Source: Micromonosporaceae bacterium
GTDB lineage: Bacteria > Actinomycetota > Actinomycetes > Mycobacteriales > Micromonosporaceae
DNA: 48,929 bases
Assembly (NCBI GenBank): GCA_016880465.1
Contig: JAEHDK010000738.1
Coordinates: forward strand, 1 to 48,929
Direction: 5' to 3'
The translations under genes were made by a program, and so were the position numbers. Shown piece after piece: positions 15,229 through 25,663 of the stretch; within the stretch, counting starts at the first letter, position 1; each line of letters starts with the position of its first letter. The notes under the pieces were generated by a model. It was given only the letters and a program-made list of their open reading frames with translations, was not told where the DNA came from and ran no database searches.

Positions 15229-15693
15229 GTGTTCCACCGGATCGGCGCGCCGGATCCGGGGACGTTCACCAACAGCATGGACCAGATCCGCGGCTTCGCC
15301 GGCGAGAAGACGTTCGACGGCATCTACACCTCCGTGTGGGACCACCGGGACGAGGTCCGCGACCTCGGCGGGGTGTGGCTGTTCGCCGCCGGCGACACGA
15401 TCGGCAAAGACGGCTTCATCACCCACCACCAACTGTTGACGCTGGCGCACGAGTACGGGTGCCGGCTGGGTTGGCACACGTGGTCACATCCGGACATGCG
15501 GACCCTGTCCGACGATCAGATCCGGGCCGAGTTGGACTGTCCTGACTGGATGCCCCGGGACGCGTTCGCCTACCCGTACGGGGACTTCGACGAGCGCGTG
15601 GCAGGCCTGGTGAAAGAGGCCGGCTACGGCAAGGCGTACTCGACCACCCAGGGCAACGGCAGTGACTTCGCGATCCGGCGCGACTACATCTGA
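15229..15693 (+). CDS. Polysaccharide deacetylase-like (NodB homology, short form)
   Basis: GTG 15229 is 3 nt after the previous stop. HTWSHPDMRTLS matches the NodB H(S/T)xxH motif, and FAYPYGDFDERV is the typical motif 4. The canonical N-terminal DD motif was not seen. Confidence 0.6.
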   Translation: MFHRIGAPDPGTFTNSMDQIRGFAGEKTFDGIYTSVWDHRDEVRDLGGVWLFAAGDTIGKDGFITHHQLLTLAHEYGCRLGWHTWSHPDMRTLSDDQIRAELDCPDWMPRDAFAYPYGDFDERVAGLVKEAGYGKAYSTTQGNGSDFAIRRDYI

Positions 15694-16300
15694 GCACGTC
15701 GCCGCCTGCAAGCGGGACGGGTTCGCCCGGATCCCCGGCGTATTCGGCCGGGATGAGACCGACCGGCTGCGGGCTGAAGCGATCCTGGCCTGCCGCGGCG
15801 GGAACGTGGAGGTCCGCGACGGCTACCCGTGCCTGCTGTTCTGGCCCGACAGCACCTACATGCGGGCGCTGGCCCGGGACCGCAGGTTGTTGGACATCGT
15901 GTCGGCCTACTACGGCCACACCGACTACGAACTCGAAACCCAGCAGTACTACTTCCACCTGCCCGGGGATCCGGACGAGTTCGCCTGGCACACCGACGAA
16001 CGTTTCCGACCGGGCGTGGGCAACCTGTACCTGCAAACGGCCATCCTCGTCGACGACTGGACCGTGGACAACGGGGCGGTGGAGTTCATCTCCGGCTCCC
16101 ACCGGTCGACCTTCGTCAACTCGGGCGACCTGCGGGTGTTCATCCGCGGGGAGCGCCGCGGCGTGCAACTGCTGGCCCGCGCGGGCGATGTGCTCACGTG
16201 GTCGAACACGGTGGTCCACGGCTCCGAGCACAACCGGTCCGATCGTGCGCGGGGGTACTTCATGAACGGGTTCCGGTCCGGCACCTTGGCGCAGTGTTGA
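15662..16300 (+). CDS. PhyH-family Fe(II)/2-oxoglutarate dioxygenase
   Basis: FAWHTDE (HxD), DNGAVEFISGSH and VVHGSEHNRSDRAR fit the phytanoyl-CoA dioxygenase-like facial triad and Arg. GTG 15662 is the only in-frame start (32-nt overlap). Confidence 0.75.
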   Translation: MTSRSGATTSEHVAACKRDGFARIPGVFGRDETDRLRAEAILACRGGNVEVRDGYPCLLFWPDSTYMRALARDRRLLDIVSAYYGHTDYELETQQYYFHLPGDPDEFAWHTDERFRPGVGNLYLQTAILVDDWTVDNGAVEFISGSHRSTFVNSGDLRVFIRGERRGVQLLARAGDVLTWSNTVVHGSEHNRSDRARGYFMNGFRSGTLAQC

Positions 16301-16857
16301 ACACCTGCGTCATCGCCTCCTACCGGTACGGGCACCTGGCCGCCCAGGCCATCGAGTCGGTGCTGTACCAGACCAAGCCGTTCGACCGGATCCTGTTCGT
16401 CGATGACGGGGTGGGTGACTGCGGCCACCTGCCGGCCATCTACCCGGAAGTCGAGTACGTCCTGCGCCCCGAGCGCATGGGGATCGTGGCGAACTTCAAC
16501 GACATGCTCGCCCGGGTAGACACCGAGCGGGTCATGTACCTGGGCGCGGACAACTGGCTGGACCACTCCACGTTGGAGATCACCTCCGCTGTCGACGCGG
16601 ACATCGTCTCCTACGCCGCGTGGCTGATCAAAAGCGGCCCGCCGGTGCGGTGGCATGTCGACGTGCCGCACGGCAGTTCCCTGTACCGGGTGGCGCCGGC
16701 TCGGGCGGTCGGGTGTTACGAGGCCAGCGGTCACACGAACACCGAGGAGGACTCCGTGATGTTCGCGCGGATGCGCTCGGCGGGCGCGACGTTCGACAAC
16801 CGGTCTGACACGCTCCTGTACTACCGCTGGCGACACCGCAGGAACTTCAACCAGTGA
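16294..16857 (+). CDS. Glycosyltransferase family 2-like
   Basis: CVIASYRYGHLAAQAIESVLYQT...ILFVDDGVGD and LGADNWL (DxD-like). GTG 16294 overlaps the previous stop. The 5' part of track ORF 15829 is rejected. Confidence 0.75.
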   Translation: MLNTCVIASYRYGHLAAQAIESVLYQTKPFDRILFVDDGVGDCGHLPAIYPEVEYVLRPERMGIVANFNDMLARVDTERVMYLGADNWLDHSTLEITSAVDADIVSYAAWLIKSGPPVRWHVDVPHGSSLYRVAPARAVGCYEASGHTNTEEDSVMFARMRSAGATFDNRSDTLLYYRWRHRRNFNQ

Positions 16858-17501
16858 TCTCCTGGATCGTTGCCTCCCACCACTACCCGACACTGCGGGA
16901 CAACCTGGGAGCCACGATCCGCGGCGTGGGCGACGACGAGGTCGTAGTGGTGGAGGACGTCCCGTCGATCGCGAAGGCGTACAACGAAGGCCAGGCCCGG
17001 GCCACCCAGCCGATCCGCGTCTACGTCCACCACGACGTACAGATCCGCGACGCGCGCCGCCTGCGCGCCGGACTCGTCGAGCACTGCACGCCGGCGATGG
17101 GTTGGGTCGGGGTCATCGGATCCACCGACCGGGCCCTGCCATGGTGGGACGCCGCGGCCAAGTGCGGGTCCGTCGTGGACGCGCGGCTGGGCCTACTCGA
17201 CTTCGGCCCGGGCGGGGCCTGCGCCTACCTCGACGGCCTACTGCTCGCCACTGTGCATGAATGGACGTGGGACGAGTCGTATCCCGGCTGGCACTGGTAC
17301 GACCACGACATCTGCGAGCAGGCGCGGAGCGACGGCTTGCCGAACTGGTGCCTGACCGACGGCCATCGGCTGGTGTTGCACAACACCACCGGCAGCGCGG
17401 TCACCGATCAACTTCCCAACTGGCACGAGGGCAAGACCCGATTCGTCGAGAAGTGGGGTGTGGACCTTGGCGCTCGGCGCGAGTTACGCGACGCTGGCTG
17501 A
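16854..17501 (+). CDS. Glycosyltransferase-like protein (Glyco_tranf_2_5-like)
   Basis: ISWIVASHH...VVVVEDVPSIAKAYNEG and LDGLLLATVHEW..GWHWYDHDICEQA resemble the 'glycosyltransferase like family' proteins. Confidence 0.65.
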   Translation: MISWIVASHHYPTLRDNLGATIRGVGDDEVVVVEDVPSIAKAYNEGQARATQPIRVYVHHDVQIRDARRLRAGLVEHCTPAMGWVGVIGSTDRALPWWDAAAKCGSVVDARLGLLDFGPGGACAYLDGLLLATVHEWTWDESYPGWHWYDHDICEQARSDGLPNWCLTDGHRLVLHNTTGSAVTDQLPNWHEGKTRFVEKWGVDLGARRELRDAG

Positions 17502-18084
17502 ACTCCGCTCCCGACTCCAGGTGTCCGACGCCGCGTTCACCGGCGAGGACACGAAACTGACCGCGGCGCTCGCAACGGCCTCGCGGGGGATCGAGAAACT
17601 GTGTGGCCGGCAGTTCAACGTCGCCGGCTCCGCCACCGCGCGCGTCTATGAGCCGTTCTCGTACACGCTGGTGAAGGTCGACGACATATCCACCACGTCC
17701 GGGCTCGTTGTGAAGACCGACACCGCCGGCGACGGCACCTACTCGACCACCATCACCTCCGCCCAGTACCAACTGCGGCCGTTGAACGGGGTTGTCGACG
17801 GGGAGACCGGCTGGCCCTACTACGAGATCGAGTCCATCAACCAGTATTGGCCGACGTACTGGCAGATCGCCCCCATACAGGTGACCGCCAACTGGGGCTG
17901 GTCCGCTGTTCCCGCCGCGATCAAAGAGGGCTGCCTGATCCTCGCCGAGGAGATCTACCGTGTTGCCGAACTCCCCTTCGGTGTCGGGGGCTACGGCCAG
18001 TTCGGGATCATCCGCGCGCGCGCGAACCCGATGGTGATGGCCCGGATCGGCCCGTACGTCCGCGATCCGGTGATGGTCGGATAG
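17458..18084 (+). CDS. Head-tail connector (gp6-like adaptor)
   Basis: YATLAELRSRLQV...TKLTAALATASRGIEKLCGRQF is typical of gp6-like head-tail connectors. Start is GTG 17458 or TTG 17467. Confidence 0.7.
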   Translation: MWTLALGASYATLAELRSRLQVSDAAFTGEDTKLTAALATASRGIEKLCGRQFNVAGSATARVYEPFSYTLVKVDDISTTSGLVVKTDTAGDGTYSTTITSAQYQLRPLNGVVDGETGWPYYEIESINQYWPTYWQIAPIQVTANWGWSAVPAAIKEGCLILAEEIYRVAELPFGVGGYGQFGIIRARANPMVMARIGPYVRDPVMVG

Positions 18085-18503
18085 TGGCCGACGTCAAGGC
18101 GGTTCGGGATCGGGTCGTCACCCGGATCCGTGCCGCGGTCACCGGGATCAACGTCATGGACTTCATGGTGGTCAACCCGGTCCTGCCCGCGGCCCTGGTC
18201 GCGCCGCCGCCCGGGACGTTCCTGACCGAGGTCACCGGCGACGGCTGCGAGGACCTGGACCTGGTGGTGACGGTGTTGGTGTCGAACACGATGTCGCAGA
18301 ACGCGCAGAACCGGTTGGACGAGTACCTGTCCGAAGGCGCGTCGCAGAACCTGGCCAACGCGATCGAGTCCGGGTCCACGGCCGACTGGGACTACGCCAT
18401 CGTCGGCGCGGCCCGCAACTACGGCTCGTTCGTGTTCGGCTCCGGCGACCAGGCCCAGACGTTCCTCGGCTTCGAACTGCCCGTCACGGTAGGACTGTCG
18501 TGA
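18084..18503 (+). CDS. Head-tail joining protein (tail-terminator/DUF3168-like)
   Basis: GTG 18084 overlaps the previous TAG. 139 aa. The call rests on position and size only. Confidence 0.5.
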   Translation: MADVKAVRDRVVTRIRAAVTGINVMDFMVVNPVLPAALVAPPPGTFLTEVTGDGCEDLDLVVTVLVSNTMSQNAQNRLDEYLSEGASQNLANAIESGSTADWDYAIVGAARNYGSFVFGSGDQAQTFLGFELPVTVGLS

Positions 18504-18522
18504 CCGAGGCGGTGATGAAGTA

Positions 18523-18561
18523 GTGCGGATCCTGCTGGTGGCCCCGGGTCCGCACTTCTAG
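18523..18561 (+). other. Out-of-frame N-terminal segment (VRILLVAPGPHF-stop) of the downstream CgeB-like glycosyltransferase
   Basis: A Rossmann-type first strand is encoded in the frame one nucleotide behind the downstream ORF (a +1 shift joins them) and ends at TAG 18559-18561. The downstream frame is open from 18524 but has no start codon before 18668. Confidence 0.6.
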
Positions 18562-18667
18562 CGTCAGCGTCTTCGACATCTTCGAGGGCTGGCGGGAAGC
18601 GCTCACCGAACTCGGTCAGACGGTAGCCACCTACCAGACGGGGGACCGGCTCACCTTCTACGAGTCG

Positions 18668-19570
18668 GTGCTCCTTCCGTCCGGCCGGCCAGGACCAGAA
18701 GGCCAGAGCGAGTTCCACAAGGCGCTGACAACAGACCAGGCCGCGCAGTTGGCCCTCAACGGCCTGCTCTCCGCCTGCTACCAGTTCTGGCCCGACGTCG
18801 TCGTCTTCGTCACCGGCTTCCTGGTGCAGCCGGAGATGGTGGAACTCATCTACAGCCGCGGCCACAAGGTGGTCATCGTCTGCACCGAAAGCCCGTACGA
18901 GACGGCCCGCGAGTTGAAACTGGCCGAGCACGCCGACCTCGTGCTGCTGAACGACCCGACCCACATCGACCGCTTCCGTGAGGTCGCGCCCACCATCTAC
19001 GCCCACCAGGCGTACCGACCGTCGGTGCACAAGCCCGGGCCCGCGCGTAAGAACATGGCTAGCGACCTCGCGTTCGTCGGCACCGGGTATCCCAGCCGGA
19101 TCGCGTTCCTCGAGGCGATGGACCTCACCGGGCTGGGCGTACTGCTCGCCGGCAACTGGCAGACGCTCACCGAAGAGTCGCCACTGCATCGGTTCTTCGC
19201 CAACAAGCCCGACGAGTGCCTGTCCAACGAGAGCGCGGTGCACGTCTACCGCTCGGCCCGGATGGGCATGAACCTGTACCGCCGGGAAGCCGAACGTCCC
19301 GAACTGTCGCAGGGCTGGTCGTGCGGCCCCCGGGAGATTGAGATGGCCGCGGTCGGGTTGCCGTTCCTGCGAGAACCTCGCGGCGAGTCCGACGAACTGT
19401 TTCCCATGCTGCCGTCCTTCACGTCGTCGGGTGAGGCGTCGGAGCTGCTCCGCTGGTGGCTCGCCCACCCGGTGGAGCGCGAGGAGGCGGCACTCAAGGC
19501 TCGGTCGGCAGTCGCCGACCGGACGTTCAACCAGCTCGCCGTGGAGTTGCTACGGCATCTCGAGTCCTGA
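18668..19570 (+). CDS. CgeB-like (GT-B/GT1-fold) glycosyltransferase, possibly frameshifted at its 5' end
   Basis: FVGTGYPSRIAFLEAM...LAGNW...VYRSARMGMNLYR...GPREIEMAAVGLPFL resembles CgeB/Glyco_trans_1_2 proteins. Conserved-looking residues (SVSVFDIFEGWREALTELG..) lie upstream of the first start codon. Confidence 0.7.
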   Translation: MLLPSGRPGPEGQSEFHKALTTDQAAQLALNGLLSACYQFWPDVVVFVTGFLVQPEMVELIYSRGHKVVIVCTESPYETARELKLAEHADLVLLNDPTHIDRFREVAPTIYAHQAYRPSVHKPGPARKNMASDLAFVGTGYPSRIAFLEAMDLTGLGVLLAGNWQTLTEESPLHRFFANKPDECLSNESAVHVYRSARMGMNLYRREAERPELSQGWSCGPREIEMAAVGLPFLREPRGESDELFPMLPSFTSSGEASELLRWWLAHPVEREEAALKARSAVADRTFNQLAVELLRHLES

Positions 19571-19594
19571 TACTCTTAGGAAGGAAACGGACAA

Positions 19595-19993
19595 GTGTCG
19601 AGAATTCACGGCAAAAGGGGACGTTTCTATATCGGCATAGCTTCGGGCGGAACTCCCGAGCCGCTGCCGTTCATCGCCCGCTGGGCCATCCGGTTTCCCA
19701 CCGACAAGGCCGACGTCACGGCGATGGGCGACACCCACAAGACGTACGTCTCCGGGATGCCCGACTGCACCGGCATGGTGTCCGGGTTCCTGGATGACGC
19801 GACCGCGCAGACCTACACCGCGGCCACCGACTCGATCGCCCGCAGCTTCTACTTATACCCCGATTTGTCCAGTAACACGAAGTACTGGTACGGGACGTGT
19901 GTCATCGACTTCACCGCCGAGGGTGGCGTTGACGGTGGTGTGACGCTGAACGCGGACTGGGCTGCGGCGTCGACGGTGACCCGAGTTCCGTAG
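19595..19993 (+). CDS. Major tail (tube) protein
   Basis: 132 aa. RBS AGGAAGGAAA precedes GTG 19595. RFYIG..PLPFIARWAI....DVTAMGD..K.YVSG..D is like small siphovirus tube proteins. Lies upstream of the chaperone and tape measure genes. Confidence 0.7.
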   Translation: MSRIHGKRGRFYIGIASGGTPEPLPFIARWAIRFPTDKADVTAMGDTHKTYVSGMPDCTGMVSGFLDDATAQTYTAATDSIARSFYLYPDLSSNTKYWYGTCVIDFTAEGGVDGGVTLNADWAAASTVTRVP

Positions 19994-20457
19994 TGGCCGT
20001 CGACCTGACGGTCCGCGGCCAGGCCAAGTTGGACGAGGTCGCCGCCCGGCTGGCGAAGGAGGCCCGGCGGTTTCAGCGCCGGGTGTCCCAGGCGACCAAG
20101 GATGCGGTCGAGTCGTCCTACCGGCCGGTGCTGGTTGGCATGACCCCGACCTTCGTGCCCAACGGGTACGCCGCTGTGTTGGCTCCGAGCCTTCGGGTGG
20201 CTACGACTGTGTCGTTCGCGTCGGGTCGGGTCACAGCCCGGGTGTCGGCGCCGACGGGCGGCAAATTCGGCCGCGACGTCCGCCAGTTGGAGGCCGGCAG
20301 CCTGCGGCATCCGCTGTTCGGCAACCGGGGCTGGTGGTACCGGCAGCGGGTGCGGCGCGGGTTCGCGTCGGTGCCGTTGCGCGCGATCCGCCCGCACATC
20401 GTGGCCCGCATCGACCACGAGTTGGCGCAGATCGCCCGGGACGTGGAGAGGGGATAG
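19993..20457 (+). CDS. HK97 gp10-family-like head-tail/tail-completion protein
   Basis: MAVDLTVRGQAKLDEVAARLAKEARRF...the N-terminal pattern resembles the HK97 gp10 family. Unusual position after the tube gene. Confidence 0.5.
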   Translation: MAVDLTVRGQAKLDEVAARLAKEARRFQRRVSQATKDAVESSYRPVLVGMTPTFVPNGYAAVLAPSLRVATTVSFASGRVTARVSAPTGGKFGRDVRQLEAGSLRHPLFGNRGWWYRQRVRRGFASVPLRAIRPHIVARIDHELAQIARDVERG

Positions 20458-21008: not shown

Positions 21009-22844
21009 GTGGCTGAAGAGATCCGCCTAGACGTCGTTACCACCGCTCACTCGCGCGGGCTGTCGGATGCCGCGCGCGAGTTGAAGGGACTACGCACCGA
21101 GGCGGATAAGACCGGCACGTCGTTTCACCGCACCTCGGACGAATCGTTCAACCTTGACCGGGCTATCCACGACGCCCGCACCGAGGTGCACCGGCTCAAC
21201 GAAGAGTTCAAGCGCTCCGGTGACCATTCGCTGTTCCGGGACATGCGCCGAGCCCGGTCGGAACTCAACGACCTGCTGCGGGTTGCGGGCCGCGGTGGCG
21301 GGGCTGGCGGCGGGGTCGTCTCGGGCATGTTCGACCTGGGCGGTGCGGGCATCCGGCCCGTTCACGCTCTGATCGGGGCCCTGGTTGCCGCTGTCGCGGC
21401 CGCGGCACCTGCGTTGGGTGCGATGATCGCCGGCGCGGTGACCGGTGCTGTTGGTCTCGGCGGGATCGTCGGGGGGATTTTCGCGGCGGCGCGAAGTCCG
21501 GCGGTACGGCAAGCCGCGTCACAGTTCGCGTCGAACATCTCCAATGCCTTCTTTCAGATGGGTGACGAGTTCGTCGAGCCTCTGGTCGGCGCGCTGCAGA
21601 CGCTGCAGGAGGGGTTCTCGAGCCTGCACCTGGAGGACGCTTTCGAGAAGGTGGCCCCGTACGTTGACGACCTGGCGATGGGTCTGGCCGGGTTCGGCAA
21701 GAACTTCATGGTGGGCTTCAGCAAGGCCCTCGACGCGGCCGGCCCGGCGCTGGAGTTGCTGGGCCGCGAGTTGCCCACCGTCGGTGACGCGCTCGGGTAC
21801 ATGTTCTCGAAGATGGCCGAGTCGAAGGGGACACTGCAGGGCCTGCTGTTCTTCCTCGGCGTGCTTGAGGCGACGTTCAAGGGCGTCGGCAACGTCGTCG
21901 GTTGGTTGTCGGACCAGTTCTACAACTTCAACGCGTTCATGCGCGACACCACAGCATTCCTGGCGGGCATGTTCAAGGCGGTCGCGCCGGGGGCGACGTT
22001 CCTGCAGGACGCGTTCCTGCGGGTCAGTAACACCATCTCCAACTTCATCGGTGCGGCCGAGGTGGACCGGCAGGTGCTGGTCGGTTTGGGCCGGGAGCAC
22101 ATGAACCTGGCGGGGGCGGCACAGGCCACCGCCGATGCGGTCAACAAACTGAACGACGCGCTCCTGGAAGAGCAGAACAAGATGCTCGCCGCGTCGAACG
22201 CGACCCTGGCATATGAGGCCGACCTGATCCGGCTCAACGAGCAGGTCAAGGAACACGGGACGAGCCTGAAGCGGAACACGGAAGAGGGCAACGCCAACCG
22301 GCAGATGATCAACCAGACGATCGGTGACCTGCAGCGGGAGTTGCAGGCCAGCATCGACGCGGCCAACGGCGACTCGAAGAAGATCGACGCGGCGAAGAAG
22401 AAGTACAACGACCAGATCGCGAACCTGCAGCGGTTGTTGGAGAAGCTCGGGTTCGAGAAGGCCGAGATCGCCCGGATCATCGAGGCGTACAAGAACATTC
22501 CCCGCCAGGTAACCACGAAGATCATTCAGGACTACCAGACCCGCGGCGTCCCCGCCGGCGAGCACTCCGGGGTACGGATCGGGGAGACCCGCGGCCGCGC
22601 CGCAGGTGGCCCGGTCTGGCCGGGCGACTGGCGTGTCGGCGAGGGTGGCCCGGAGCGGCTGCGGATCAACGCCGACGGTACGGGCTATGTGTACCCGGAG
22701 GCGGGTAGCGGCGGCCGGGGTGGCGGGGCGCGGCCGGTGAACATCACTGTGGTCGGGTCGGAGGATGACCAGCGGTTGCTCGACCGGGTTGTCCGTGAGG
22801 TCCGCCGCCGGGGCGGCACACTGGCCGTGATCGGGATCAAGTAG
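21009..22844 (+). CDS. Tape measure protein
   Basis: 611 aa with a Gly/Ala-rich membrane-like segment and long coiled coils. Position is after the G/GT chaperones. Confidence 0.85.
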   Translation: MAEEIRLDVVTTAHSRGLSDAARELKGLRTEADKTGTSFHRTSDESFNLDRAIHDARTEVHRLNEEFKRSGDHSLFRDMRRARSELNDLLRVAGRGGGAGGGVVSGMFDLGGAGIRPVHALIGALVAAVAAAAPALGAMIAGAVTGAVGLGGIVGGIFAAARSPAVRQAASQFASNISNAFFQMGDEFVEPLVGALQTLQEGFSSLHLEDAFEKVAPYVDDLAMGLAGFGKNFMVGFSKALDAAGPALELLGRELPTVGDALGYMFSKMAESKGTLQGLLFFLGVLEATFKGVGNVVGWLSDQFYNFNAFMRDTTAFLAGMFKAVAPGATFLQDAFLRVSNTISNFIGAAEVDRQVLVGLGREHMNLAGAAQATADAVNKLNDALLEEQNKMLAASNATLAYEADLIRLNEQVKEHGTSLKRNTEEGNANRQMINQTIGDLQRELQASIDAANGDSKKIDAAKKKYNDQIANLQRLLEKLGFEKAEIARIIEAYKNIPRQVTTKIIQDYQTRGVPAGEHSGVRIGETRGRAAGGPVWPGDWRVGEGGPERLRINADGTGYVYPEAGSGGRGGGARPVNITVVGSEDDQRLLDRVVREVRRRGGTLAVIGIK

Positions 22845-25663
22845 TGGCGTTCCCCAACACGAAGCTGGGCCTGGTCGTCGAGTTGGCACTCGCCGCCGAC
22901 CTGACCGCTGACCCTTCGACGTGGGCGTGGACCGATGTCACGTCCACCTACGTGCGGGTGGCCCGCGGGGTGAGCATCACCCGGGGTGCCCGGGACGGCG
23001 GGTTGCAGTCACCCCCGTCGACAATGACGTTCTGGGCCGACAACCGGGACGGCCGGTGGGTGCCCACCAACCCGACGGGCGCCTGGTATGGGCAGATCGG
23101 CAAGGGCACCCCGATCCGGGTGCGCACCACCGAGGGCTCGTCGAGTGTGCGGTGGACCGGCTTCCTGACGTCGCTGCCGCCACGGTGGAACACGAAGGAG
23201 ACCGACCGGTATGTCGAGGTGACCGCGTCTGGGATCCTGCAACGCCTGGAGCGCGGCTCGGTGCCATCCCGGTTCACCTACTACCGGTCTGAACTTGGTG
23301 CGGACCCAATAGACTATTGGCCCTGCGAAGACGCTTCAGCCGCAACGTCGTTCGCGTCGGCTGTCACGGGCGGCCGCCCGCTCGGATTCAATTCTGCGGT
23401 AACGCCGGCTTCGGAATCACCGGCAGCCGGAACGGACGCACTTCCTTCACTTGCGACTGGTGCTCTCATGAACGCCACGTGTCGCGCCGAGTCGACTGAT
23501 ACGTGGCAGGTCCGCGCTGTCTGGCAGGTGCCGACCTCGCCCACCGTGGAGACGATGCTCTTCAAGGTGATCACTGGTGGCACCGCCAAGGTGTGGCAAC
23601 TGAATCTTGTGCCGGGAAGCCCCGACTCGATCCGCTTGCAGGTACTCGCCCCCGACGGGACATCCCTGCTCAATACGACCTCGGCGTTGTCGGCTGACGC
23701 GGACTTCTATGGCGGTCCGTGCATCGTGTCCGTATCCGCCGCGACCGATGGCGCGGATCTTGACGCCATGTCCCTGGTGGTGAATGCCTCCGGCGCGTCG
23801 GTGGCGAGCATTCTCACTACCATTACGGGCCAGACAGTGACACGACCTGTCGGCATCCAGATCCTGGCCGATGTGAGCCTGAACGGTTCGCTTTTTGGTC
23901 ACCTCGCGACCTTCAGGGAAACCTCTCAGACCATTGGGTTGGACTTCGGCAACCTGACCGGATTCGACGGGGAGACCGTCGGTGCCCGCGTGACGCGACT
24001 GGCCAACGAAGTGACGATCATCGAAGGCGCCACCGAATTGACCGGGTCCGATGACGTCAACACGATGGGCCCACAGTCTCAGCAGGCCCTGCTCGGGTTG
24101 TTGCGCGAGTGCGAGGCTGTCAACGGCGGCCGGCTGATCGAGTTGCGGGACGCGGCCACAGATGACTTCTTCCTTGAACTCATCTGTGCTGACGACATCA
24201 GCAACCAGGCCGCCGCGCTTACCCTGAACCACGACTCGGGTCATCTGGCGCCGCCGTTCGAACCGACCGACGACGACCAACATCTCATCAACGATGTGAC
24301 CGCCACCCGCTCCGGAGGCTCGGGTATCGGCTCGTCGGCGCGCGTCGTGGCCACGGCCGGTGAGCACTCAGCCAGCCTCACCCCCGCCAAGGTCGGAACC
24401 TACGCCGACTCGGTGTCGGTCAACGTGGAGCTCGACGAACTGCTGATCCACCAGGCCGGGTGGAGAGTCAACGTCGGCACCGTCGAAGGGCTGCGGTTCC
24501 CCGTCGTCACCCTGAACTTCGCCCACAACCCGAGCCTCATCGCCGACTGGATCGGCTGCGACATCGGGTCCCGGATCACCATCACCAACCCGCCGGCTGG
24601 CATCGCCCCCGACAGCATCGACCTGCTGGTCGAAGGCTGGACCGAGATCTTCGGCCCGTACACGTGGGAAGTACAGCTCAACTGCTTGCCGTACAAGCCG
24701 TGGCACGTCTTCCGGCTGGCCGAGACGTCGGCGGACACGAACGTGTTCCTCGGCCGGCTGGCTGGGGATGAGAAGTGCGCCCTGCGGACGGCGGTGGACG
24801 ACAACGACACCTCGTTCGTCGTCGACCCCAACTTCTTCCGGTGGACCACCACGGCGGACGACTTCCCAGTCAACATCCGACTTGGTGGCGAGGTGTGCAC
24901 CGTCTCCGCCATCTCCACCACCGCCGCCACCTACGTCGGCCGTGGCGCACTGTCGAGTGCGGACAACGCGGCGGTCACCCCGGCCACCACCGGCTTCGGC
25001 GCGGCCGACGGGGACCTGCTGCTGTGTCTGGCCCGGATGCGTGGCACGGCCGGGTCGTTGAGTACCGCCAGCACGGGCTGGGAGCTCATGGCCCAGGTGG
25101 GAAATCTCTACCTGTACGGGGCGATCCGCAGCGGTTCAACGGCGATCACGGTCACCCCATCCGGTGGGGCGGCTGGTGATGTGGTGTCGGCCACCGTATT
25201 CGCATTCACCGGCATGCCGACCACACTCGACGCGCTGGCCGACATGATCGTGCAGATCGTCAAGCAGTCCAACGCGAGCGCGCAGGACATCGCGTTCCCC
25301 GGCATGTACCCGACGATGCCGGGCCAGATCGTCCTGTTGCTCGCCGGCAAGTCCGACGACTGGACGAGCGTCGCCGTGCCCGCGGGTTACACCGAGTCGG
25401 GTGAACCCAGCACCGGTACCGGCAGCGACCAGGGGCTCTACATCGCCTACCAGATCCAGACCACGCCCGTTGTCGTCAATGGCGGGTCTCTTGTGGTCAC
25501 TGGTGGCGCGGCGGCGGTCAGCGAGTCCATGGCCCTGGTTCTCGGCGCCGGTTTCCAGACGTTCACCATCTCGGCGCGGAACGTCAATGGCATCACCGGT
25601 GGCAAGTCGCAGACGGCGGGAACGTTGATCGAAGTGGACGACCCAGCGAGATTGGCCTTGTAG
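22844..25663 (+). CDS. Minor tail protein (distal tail / tail-tip, Dit-like N-terminus)
   Basis: 939 aa. Start overlaps the tape measure stop. N-terminal KLGLVVELA...TWAWTDVTSYVR...SITRGARDG is typical of Sipho_tail/Dit proteins. Confidence 0.7.
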   Translation: MAFPNTKLGLVVELALAADLTADPSTWAWTDVTSTYVRVARGVSITRGARDGGLQSPPSTMTFWADNRDGRWVPTNPTGAWYGQIGKGTPIRVRTTEGSSSVRWTGFLTSLPPRWNTKETDRYVEVTASGILQRLERGSVPSRFTYYRSELGADPIDYWPCEDASAATSFASAVTGGRPLGFNSAVTPASESPAAGTDALPSLATGALMNATCRAESTDTWQVRAVWQVPTSPTVETMLFKVITGGTAKVWQLNLVPGSPDSIRLQVLAPDGTSLLNTTSALSADADFYGGPCIVSVSAATDGADLDAMSLVVNASGASVASILTTITGQTVTRPVGIQILADVSLNGSLFGHLATFRETSQTIGLDFGNLTGFDGETVGARVTRLANEVTIIEGATELTGSDDVNTMGPQSQQALLGLLRECEAVNGGRLIELRDAATDDFFLELICADDISNQAAALTLNHDSGHLAPPFEPTDDDQHLINDVTATRSGGSGIGSSARVVATAGEHSASLTPAKVGTYADSVSVNVELDELLIHQAGWRVNVGTVEGLRFPVVTLNFAHNPSLIADWIGCDIGSRITITNPPAGIAPDSIDLLVEGWTEIFGPYTWEVQLNCLPYKPWHVFRLAETSADTNVFLGRLAGDEKCALRTAVDDNDTSFVVDPNFFRWTTTADDFPVNIRLGGEVCTVSAISTTAATYVGRGALSSADNAAVTPATTGFGAADGDLLLCLARMRGTAGSLSTASTGWELMAQVGNLYLYGAIRSGSTAITVTPSGGAAGDVVSATVFAFTGMPTTLDALADMIVQIVKQSNASAQDIAFPGMYPTMPGQIVLLLAGKSDDWTSVAVPAGYTESGEPSTGTGSDQGLYIAYQIQTTPVVVNGGSLVVTGGAAAVSESMALVLGAGFQTFTISARNVNGITGGKSQTAGTLIEVDDPARLAL

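Follow-up and report, generated by a model that had tools for sequence, protein, structure and literature searches.

The window analysed here, the entire 48,929-nt contig JAEHDK010000738.1 (67.5% GC, from an assembly of 808 contigs), carries at positions 18523-19570 a glycosyltransferase (GT) gene whose reading frame is broken after twelve codons by a 7-nt insert that a closely similar, intact gene does not have. The insert is present in the DNA, inserts of 1-12 nt recur at the same spot in related genes, and in their anatomy they resemble the short gaps that interrupt the coding sequence of the large terminase in the Streptomyces phage phiHau3. From sequence comparison, we see an even chance that the window holds a short coding gap of the phiHau3 type, which a minority of ribosomes would cross through either a +7 hop or a +1 shift. 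All elements of the break described below are on the plus strand.

In the zero frame, a GTG start codon (18523-18525) opens VRILLVAPGPHF, and after these 12 codons the frame is ended by a TAG (18559-18561). The +1 frame is closed on its 5' side by the TAG at 18521-18523, is open from 18524 and runs without a stop until the TGA at 19568-19570. Read from 18560 it begins SVSVFDIFEGW and constitutes the body of the gene (18560-19570, 336 codons and then the TGA). The earliest ATG, GTG or TTG of this body frame is the GTG at 18668-18670, which is the start chosen by the gene caller for P0125 and gives an open reading frame (ORF) of 300 aa (18668-19570). The GTG start, the TAG at 18559-18561, the open body frame back to 18524 and GTG 18668, as well as the continuation of the +1 frame from the stop codon into the annotated ORF, had already been given by an earlier interpretation made without database searches (the sequence-only reading), and they stand as described. 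A Shine-Dalgarno-like GAGG (18506-18509), presumably functional, lies 13 nt before GTG 18523; relatives have GGGGAG or GGAGG, followed by a GTGATG... spacer and then by the start codon.

An intact version of the gene is found in P0123 (346 aa), which is 93% identical to the joined reading of the window (P0002) and is encoded in one frame, VRILLVAPGPHF-SVFDIFEGW. Its residues 1-12 are identical to those encoded by the first 12 GT codons of the window (18523-18558), a segment that covers beta-1 and some of the beta1-alpha1 loop. In the alignment of the two sequences (PGPHF--SVFDIFEGW), the surplus of the window amounts to two residues, SV, and one base, that is 7 nt. The lesion is the insert TAGCGTC (18559-18565), a candidate coding gap absent from P0123, and not the 1-nt insertion that had been proposed. 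A tandem hexamer (AGCGTC twice, 18560-18571) is present at this place, and would read SV-SV if its first copy were translated in the +1 frame. The simplest description of the 7-nt surplus is a T plus a second copy of AGCGTC. Tandem duplication was rejected as the sole origin: models with a 7-nt duplication fail to give the sequence, which T + AGCGTC does.

A database search gave 1936 matches, of which those about 60% identical are 340-350 aa long and share a single-frame start, MRILVVHPGPxFSVADVxxGW. As judged from these sequences, the fit of the joined window reading to its homologues is not due to chance, and the alignment to homologues, which had been suggested as a check on the gene, shows single-frame genes carrying the conserved upstream segment. 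The Pfam domain PF13524 (Glyco_trans_1_2, 'CgeB-like') is detected in residues 182-323 of P0001 with a score of 48 bits (cut-off 25, E 1.6e-12), in agreement with the glycosyltransferase identity given before, and is present in all 120 homologues listed. The name 'spore maturation protein CgeB' is an automatic label of the source database. The AlphaFold2 model of P0002 (alignment A1, 19 homologues) has a predicted local distance difference test score (pLDDT) of 89.7, a predicted template modelling score (pTM) of 0.86 and two Rossmann-like domains, and its top Foldseek matches in the PDB are MshA, sucrose-phosphate synthase, GlgM and BshA (E 7.5e-12 to 4e-10). Domain and predicted fold both indicate that the gene encodes a GT-B glycosyltransferase, and the one-frame homologues share the N-terminus of the joined product, which had rightly been taken for that of an intact GT-B enzyme. 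In the model, beta-1 comprises residues 2-7, the following loop residues 8-13 and alpha-1 residues 14-29, and the break after F12 therefore falls in the beta1-alpha1 loop.

P0123 belongs to the 90% cluster of P0003, which is one of the three closest representatives with N-terminally truncated gene calls: P0003 is 93% identical and 304 aa long, P0004 and P0005 are both 83% identical and 315 aa long. The latter two calls, from two independent contigs, both begin at the same valine within the protein. Short calls of this kind suggest that more interrupted alleles of the clade are concealed by gene calling. On the other hand, two intact homologues (L014:639 and L024:1091) have TTG as their start codon, and the database protein for one of them, P0010, begins at a later GTG that lies 8 residues inside the conserved N-terminal segment, which shows that a shortened call in the family need not mean a broken gene. 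A search with P0001 of viral, metagenome and genome contigs for the DNA of the closest relatives gave nothing above 62% identity, and neither blastn with the region nor tblastn with P0001 (E <= 1e-5) gave a match in 50,697 deposited phage genomes. At least 537 relatives of this GT are present in contigs of viral metagenomes, and the family seems to be confined to uncultured phages.

A sequencing or assembly error is unlikely to be the cause of the break, since an independent assembly gives the same bases and analogous inserts occur at the same spot in other collections and samples. The Logan contig of run X1 (9470 nt, depth 12.8), the one DNA run holding the stretch and its likely source, has 0 differences and 0 gaps compared with window positions 18000-20000, and no indel is listed at 18559. 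The comparison was made with contigs, in which minority variants are invisible. The sequencing error that was among the explanations offered in the sequence-only reading is thus not borne out.

The junction was read in 252 loci including the window, which represent 162 distinct sequences, many of the loci being near-duplicates from related samples. The spacing from PGP to SV is the usual 6 nt in 149 of the 162 distinct sequences, and 13 (8%) have 1-12 extra nt, always confined to the same three codons (PGP-x-F/SV). The window has UUC followed by the insert UAGCGUC (7 extra nt). UUC is also followed by an insert in L006 (UGAAGCAGCGUC, 12 extra nt, in frame), L080 (UGAAGGCGUUC, 11 extra nt) and L033 (UGACUC, 6 extra nt, in frame). 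L002 has UCU, the insert UAGCGUCC and then UUC (8 extra nt), and L057 has AAU, the insert UGAAC and then UUC (5 extra nt). CCG is followed by UUACCCG in L023 and by UUAGCCG in L141 and L217, and CCU by UUAGCCU in L285, with 7 extra nt in each case. L082, L096 and L231 have UUU-C, with 1 extra nt, a single T in TTC. The body ORF is full length (327-343 aa) in all 13 insert carriers, and the frame is broken elsewhere in only 2 of 153 distinct complete sequences (L157 and L220). L285 was the one new insert-bearing locus found in a scan with the L002 body. DNA pattern scans for TTA-led and TGA-led forms found known contigs only, and the 33 other matches of one of these scans were unrelated.

On a tree of 91 rows (IQ-TREE quick, LG+G4; L024 and L123, which are short, and 16 loci missed by the first pattern were left out), the insert state changes at least 7 times, with 6 of the changes forced by well-supported branches. 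The terminal branch of the window measures 0.039, compared with 0.036 for the intact P0123, and shows no sign of relaxed constraint, which is a weak indication given that the insert may be young. L082 and L096, which carry the same +1-nt insert, differ at 39 sites with a ratio of nonsynonymous to synonymous rates (dN/dS) of 0.28 (Sd 21.2 over 251 sites, Nd 17.8 over 730), and about the same divergence is seen in their 5' flanks. L141, L217 and L023 have 53-59% amino acid identity and upstream flanks that cannot be aligned, yet they have near-identical 7-nt gaps and a conserved 10-codon N-terminus. TTAGCCG, TTACCCG or TTAGCCT is thus retained in four deeply diverged genes, these three, for which identity was compared, and L285, for which it was not.

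The first triplet of the insert is TAG, TGA or TTA in 10 of the 13; the chance of a random triplet of the same composition being TAA, TAG, TGA or TTA is 0.027, and TTA accounts for 35 of 51,663 body codons. For 7 of these 10 slow-codon-led inserts, the take-off codon and the triplet before the resumed frame are identical or synonymous (UUC..UUC at +11, UCU..UCC at +8, AAU..AAC at +5, CCG..CCG at +7 in three genes and CCU..CCU at +7), and removal of the gap restores the family consensus PGP-x-F-S-V. The two codons co-vary within the UUA-led group, being CCG/CCG in three genes and CCU/CCU in one. The other three slow-codon-led inserts (window, L006 and L033) show a partial match, NUC to UUC, and all four gaps in which UUC is followed by a stop end in NUC (CUC, GUC, UUC and GUC). 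In the window, the last zero-frame sense codon UUC (Phe, 18556-18558) is the candidate take-off codon; UUC is likewise followed by a stop in L006, L080 and L033. UAG (18559-18561), the zero-frame stop, would be the slow A-site codon, assuming that UAG is slow to decode in the host of the window. The candidate near-cognate landing site is GUC (18563-18565), just 5' of the resume codon AGC (18566) and matching UUC at two of its three positions. The nearest exact UUC downstream (+16, 18572-18574) is in the body frame and could be an alternative landing site, at which SVF would be lost.

Upstream of the gap, a 10-bp stem-loop (18523-18555) is predicted, with a 5' arm (18523-18532) that includes the start codon and a 3' arm (18546-18555) that ends one base before the take-off codon. 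The predicted minimum free energy (MFE) of this 33-nt stem is -19.3 kcal/mol in the window and -19.6 kcal/mol in L033, and none of 147 intact sequences is as stable as either. For L006 and L080 it is -15.7 kcal/mol, with 3 of the 147 intact sequences as stable or more so; the mean of the intact sequences is -8.95 kcal/mol (n=147). The difference between the 12 insert carriers then known and the 147 intact sequences (Mann-Whitney p 1.8e-5) holds when the carriers are collapsed into 8 lineages (p 5.7e-4), the insert group being the more stable despite its lower GC. Among the four sequences in which UUC is followed by a stop, all 36 alignment cells of the stem are paired and two of its nine pairs carry changes in both arms (GUG..CAC vs AUG..CAU), a modest support at four sequences since 19 of 500 shuffles do as well. 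A 3' stem-loop (18556-18598), with UUC and UAG at its base, is predicted within 18523-18622, whose MFE is -44.9 kcal/mol (z -2.35; equal or greater stability in 4 of 200 shuffles). The only internal Shine-Dalgarno-like element 5' of the gap is GGG(U) (18546-18549), 7 nt before UUC, and it is not consistent among related inserts.

Smith et al. reportedly described, in 2013, short gaps in the coding sequence of the phiHau3 large terminase. According to Antonov et al. 2023 (PMC10732093), the large terminase genes of phiHau3 and of two prophages carry such gaps. The flanks of these gaps are adjacent in insert-less relatives and 3 of 100 terminase genes are affected; the full-length product is made in Streptomyces, and with UAA replacing UUA a junction peptide identified by mass spectrometry proves bypass in E. 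coli (PMC10732093). The phiHau3 record (NC_018836) reads GGC-UUACUCCGGU-AAG and UCU-UUAACGGUCC-ACG, that is 10-nt UUA-led gaps whose take-off and landing codons are synonymous (GGC/GGU and UCU/UCC), and at the second site (g7/g8) a 9-bp stem of -19.5 kcal/mol ends one base before UCU. The GT gene of the window resembles this arrangement in having a short (7-10 nt) frame-disrupting insert with flanks that are contiguous in relatives without it, a slow-to-decode codon at the 5' end of the gap, a location in an actinophage late gene, and a stem in the same register (predicted at -19.5 kcal/mol there and -19.3 kcal/mol in the window). The inserts are also comparably rare, with 13 of 162 GT sequences against the 3 of 100 terminase genes. 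It differs in its slow codon, which is UAG (UGA in relatives) and not UUA, although four related GT genes do use UUA, and in the gene family, which is here a virion-module glycosyltransferase. The gap in the window is also 12 codons from the start, with the start codon inside the stem, and its GUC and UUC are not synonymous; bypass has experimental support in phiHau3, whereas in the window it is proposed from sequence.

To our knowledge, very few cases of natural programmed bypassing have been described (T4 gene 60 and its kin, the byps of yeast mitochondria and the phiHau3 terminase as a candidate). Among other recoding events, the +1 frameshift of prfB needs re-pairing at CUU-U and a Shine-Dalgarno sequence 3 nt upstream. 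The window is similar to prfB in that an early in-frame stop in the A site would trigger a +1 shift, with the same autoregulatory logic. It differs in that UUC shifted to UCU pairs at the first position and at the third by wobble only, and in that the sequence before UUC, ...CCGCAC, offers no Shine-Dalgarno element at -3, so that the features prfB depends on are missing here. T4 gene 60 gives one protein from two out-of-frame ORFs, and shares with the window a take-off codon followed by UAG and an mRNA structure which includes the take-off site, with a 5' stem that is thought to drive forward movement (PMC5009743). Unlike the window, it has a gap of 50 nt instead of 7, a perfectly matched GGA landing codon, a defined nascent-peptide signal and an insert linked to a mobile element, and it has no homology to the GT. 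Its efficiency is about 40% (quoted in PMC10732093). Synthetic stop-hops use matched codons around the stop, and the 2016 review, within the part drawn on, knows of no natural in-frame stop-hop (PMC5009743). In the E. coli stop-hops of Weiss et al. 1987 (via PMC5009743), the stop is likewise flanked by matched or near-matched codons and the hops are of +5 and +6, as would be those of L057 (+5) and L033 (+6); these were laboratory constructs with low efficiency. Our literature searches, on bypassing together with glycosyltransferases and on coding gaps in actinophages, returned no description of the arrangement seen here. New here are the appearance of the phiHau3-type short-gap design in another gene family, its stop-led as well as UUA-led forms, and its recurrence at one loop codon.

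If the gap is crossed, ribosomes would initiate at GTG 18523 and open the 10-bp stem. With UUC in the P site and UAG in the A site, the majority would terminate and free a peptide of 12 residues. In the minority of ribosomes that go on, peptidyl-tRNA(Phe) would uncouple during slow release, to which the refolding of the stem behind the ribosome may contribute. A +7 hop onto GUC (18563-18565) would give the exact P0123-like protein of 346 aa (junction ...PGPHF-SVFDIFEGWR), and a +1 shift to AGC 18560 a protein of 348 aa with an extra SV (junction ...PGPHF-SVSVFDIFEGWR). A lesser option would be a +16 hop to UUC 18572, which is in frame and would delete SVF (junction ...PGPHF-DIFEGWR); this is less likely because the S-V is kept in all aligned homologues. 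The gap would act on an enzyme gene in a highly expressed operon as a strong translational throttle, or as a sensor of how much release factor or tRNA is available. That ribosomes cross the gap here, as well as the route, the efficiency and the purpose of the crossing, is what we infer from the comparisons above. We further propose, tentatively, that the inserts form a naturally occurring family of short bypass sites of the stop-hop or hungry-codon kind, which would have arisen or been kept at least 7 times at the same loop codon. UAG, UGA or UUA would come first in these sites, and each would be placed behind a stem hiding the start codon. They would act as a throttle or sensor (of release factor or of a bldA-type tRNA) for the amount or timing of particle glycosylation, and the window would be a working member landing on a two-of-three match. 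Other routes to a product were considered and rejected. Re-initiation after the UAG has no ATG, GTG or TTG available before 18668; an alternative genetic code or a suppressor could not join the two parts by read-through, as the frame changes, and no tRNA gene was found in the window; and for transcriptional slippage the site offers no homopolymer.

Recoding at UUC-UAG-C, one of the possibilities raised in the sequence-only reading, gains from the recurrence of the inserts, their slow first codons, their matched flanks and the phiHau3-like 5' stem, and loses from the landing codon of the window itself. Several observations weigh against it. The landing triplet GUC matches the take-off UUC at two positions of three, which is not a same-tRNA landing, and as the +1 re-pairing of UUC to UCU is poor too, none of the three routes re-pairs ideally. 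The intact allele P0123 at 93% identity indicates that the insert is dispensable for the protein and may be recent, and insert carriers are rare (8%) and mostly at the tips of the tree, as expected of short-lived damaging mutations. Single T insertions in TTC, a common slip, account for 3 of the 13; the matched flanking triplets could come from the insertion mechanism itself, and the doubled AGCGTC has the look of common slippage. As the start codon is part of the stem, the stem could serve the control of initiation instead, and no single route (hop, shift or read-through) would serve all the gaps of 6, 7, 11 and 12 nt at related sites. Recombination, and not long retention, may account for some of the shared inserts: between -700 and about +45 of the GT gene, L006 and L080 have 93-97% identity, and only 50-65% thereafter. 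This drop in identity points to a recombination joint at the insert, and insert-bearing 5' modules can therefore move between phages. Between L006:2736-3540 and L080:2260-3063, the mosaic joint coincides with the insert site. The sampling was biased as well, four scans having been seeded with insert-bearing genes and two having been limited to the best 80 matches, which disfavours genes broken mid-way. The evidence is all computed from DNA, and the stem energies are predictions.

The most serious alternative to a coding gap is plain inactivation, in which a recent insertion of T together with a duplication of AGCGTC (7 nt) killed the gene. On this view, the inserts recur because the conserved CAY-CCN-GGN-CCN stretch is a hot spot of mutation or recombination, and loss of glycosylation may also have been selected. 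We find inactivation somewhat unlikely. The recent pseudogene of the sequence-only reading fits the existence of an intact allele at 93% identity and the imperfect landing codon of the window, and inactivation in general would agree with inserts that are rare and mainly at tree tips, with the tandem hexamer and with the mosaic breakpoint between L006 and L080. Long frames also stay open by chance in high-GC DNA (for example the 349-aa ORF at 18419-19468 on the opposite strand). Inactivation does however leave unexplained that a stop or TTA comes first in 10 of 13 inserts (0.027 per triplet by chance), that insert-bearing genes have stronger stems, that 13 of 13 bodies are full length when only 2 of 153 sequences are broken elsewhere, and that dN/dS is 0.28 between two carriers of the same frameshift. 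In addition, a stop at codon 13 would leave about 1 kb untranslated just 5' of the major tail gene, which would be expected to be polar and costly.

An on/off switch at the DNA level (phase variation), whereby slippage at short repeats (TC..TC, AGCGTC twice) adds or removes the insert and yields mixed glycosylating and non-glycosylating genomes, would account for the presence of both states within one 93%-identical cluster (window and P0123), for the direct repeats flanking several inserts and possibly for the N-truncated calls of P0003, P0004 and P0005, which may be further broken alleles. Nevertheless, repeats of 2-6 nt in no more than two copies fall far short of known contingency loci, and neither the stop-first rule nor the stems are explained. 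The Logan contigs show one form only at 18559, a weak point given that contigs drop rare variants. We consider such a switch improbable. A shorter enzyme, begun at GTG 18668 or at a non-canonical start and sufficient for function, is what the gene callers imply by picking a downstream start for the protein of the window and for P0003, and the Pfam domain spans only residues 182-323 of P0001. According to the AlphaFold model, however, a protein begun at GTG 18668 would be without beta-1, alpha-1, beta-2 and alpha-2 of the N-terminal Rossmann domain; no convincing ribosome-binding site is found 5' of 18668, and the 48 codons 5' of it are, insert apart, identical to P0123 at the protein level, all of which makes a truncated enzyme highly improbable. 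That the gene is intact in the real phage and broken by an artefact could be argued from the fragmented, metagenome-derived assembly of 808 contigs, which was checked against contigs and not raw reads. With the same bases obtained by an independent assembler at a depth of about 12.8, a site that is not a homopolymer, and analogous inserts from several other collections and samples, we regard the chance of an artefact as close to negligible.

If the proposed gap and its relatives are crossed as outlined, they would provide about a dozen independent, very short and sequence-diverse sites at one structural position. The series would span stop-led and UUA-led gaps, matched and two-of-three landing codons, and in-frame and out-of-frame lengths, and so constitute a comparative test of ribosome hopping. 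It would also represent a new means by which phages dose an enzyme gene inside a structural operon with high expression. Gene callers shorten such genes (300-315 aa instead of about 346), and the sites are thereby hidden in databases. Should the inserts instead be inactivating, they would mark a sharply localised hot spot of indels or recombination in a widespread glycosylation gene of uncultured phages.

The window comes from an uncultured high-GC (67.5%) siphophage, and the GT gene belongs to its tail-gene module. A terminal direct repeat was looked for in the contig and is absent. Directly upstream is a tail terminator gene (18084-18503, plus strand, PHROG 17840, E 1.7e-13, ending in TGA 18501-18503), preceded by a head-tail adaptor gene (17458-18084), and directly downstream is a major tail protein gene (19595-19993, plus strand, PHROG 10528, E 3.4e-10). 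This position, which had been described as odd, is in fact the rule for the family, as the order adaptor, terminator, GT and major tail protein is conserved: a major tail homologue lies just 3' of the GT gene in 148 of 158 representative loci, and an adaptor homologue upstream of it in 120 of 158. Freeman et al. 2023 (cited in PMC11600133) are given as the source for phage glycosyltransferases that modify capsid and tail-tube proteins in the mycobacteriophages Che8, Corndog and Myrna. The window resembles these phages in that its GT gene is embedded in the virion module beside the tail-tube gene. It differs in that the GT has no sequence match in the 50,697 phage genomes, and the genes of those phages are not reported as interrupted in that account. 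By analogy with this glycosylation of mycobacteriophage virions, the GT probably decorates virion proteins, either of the tail tube or of the capsid. PHROGs holds no family for this GT.

Just 5' of the head-tail adaptor, the virion module contains a three-gene cassette (15662-17501) made up of a PhyH-like dioxygenase (PF05721, 15662-16300), a GT2 glycosyltransferase (PF00535, 16300-16857) and a GT2_5 protein (Glyco_tranf_2_5, PF13712, 16854-17501), which together with the interrupted GT gene forms a small glycosylation island. Among 158 related loci, only 8 have a GT2_5 homologue upstream of the GT, and none has a homologue of PhyH or GT2 there. Across the 153 distinct sequences, the GT genes end in TGA (60), TAG (50) or TAA (43), and this share of TAA and TAG is unusually high for DNA of about 67% GC; a rough count of the plus-strand ORFs of the window, spurious ones included, gave TGA 40, TAG 10 and TAA 4. 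Further downstream, a 611-aa ORF (21009-22844) ends in TAG and a 939-aa ORF (22844-25663) opens with GTG, the two codons sharing one G, and this TAGTG overlap (22842-22846) is probably an ordinary coupling of the tape-measure and minor tail genes.

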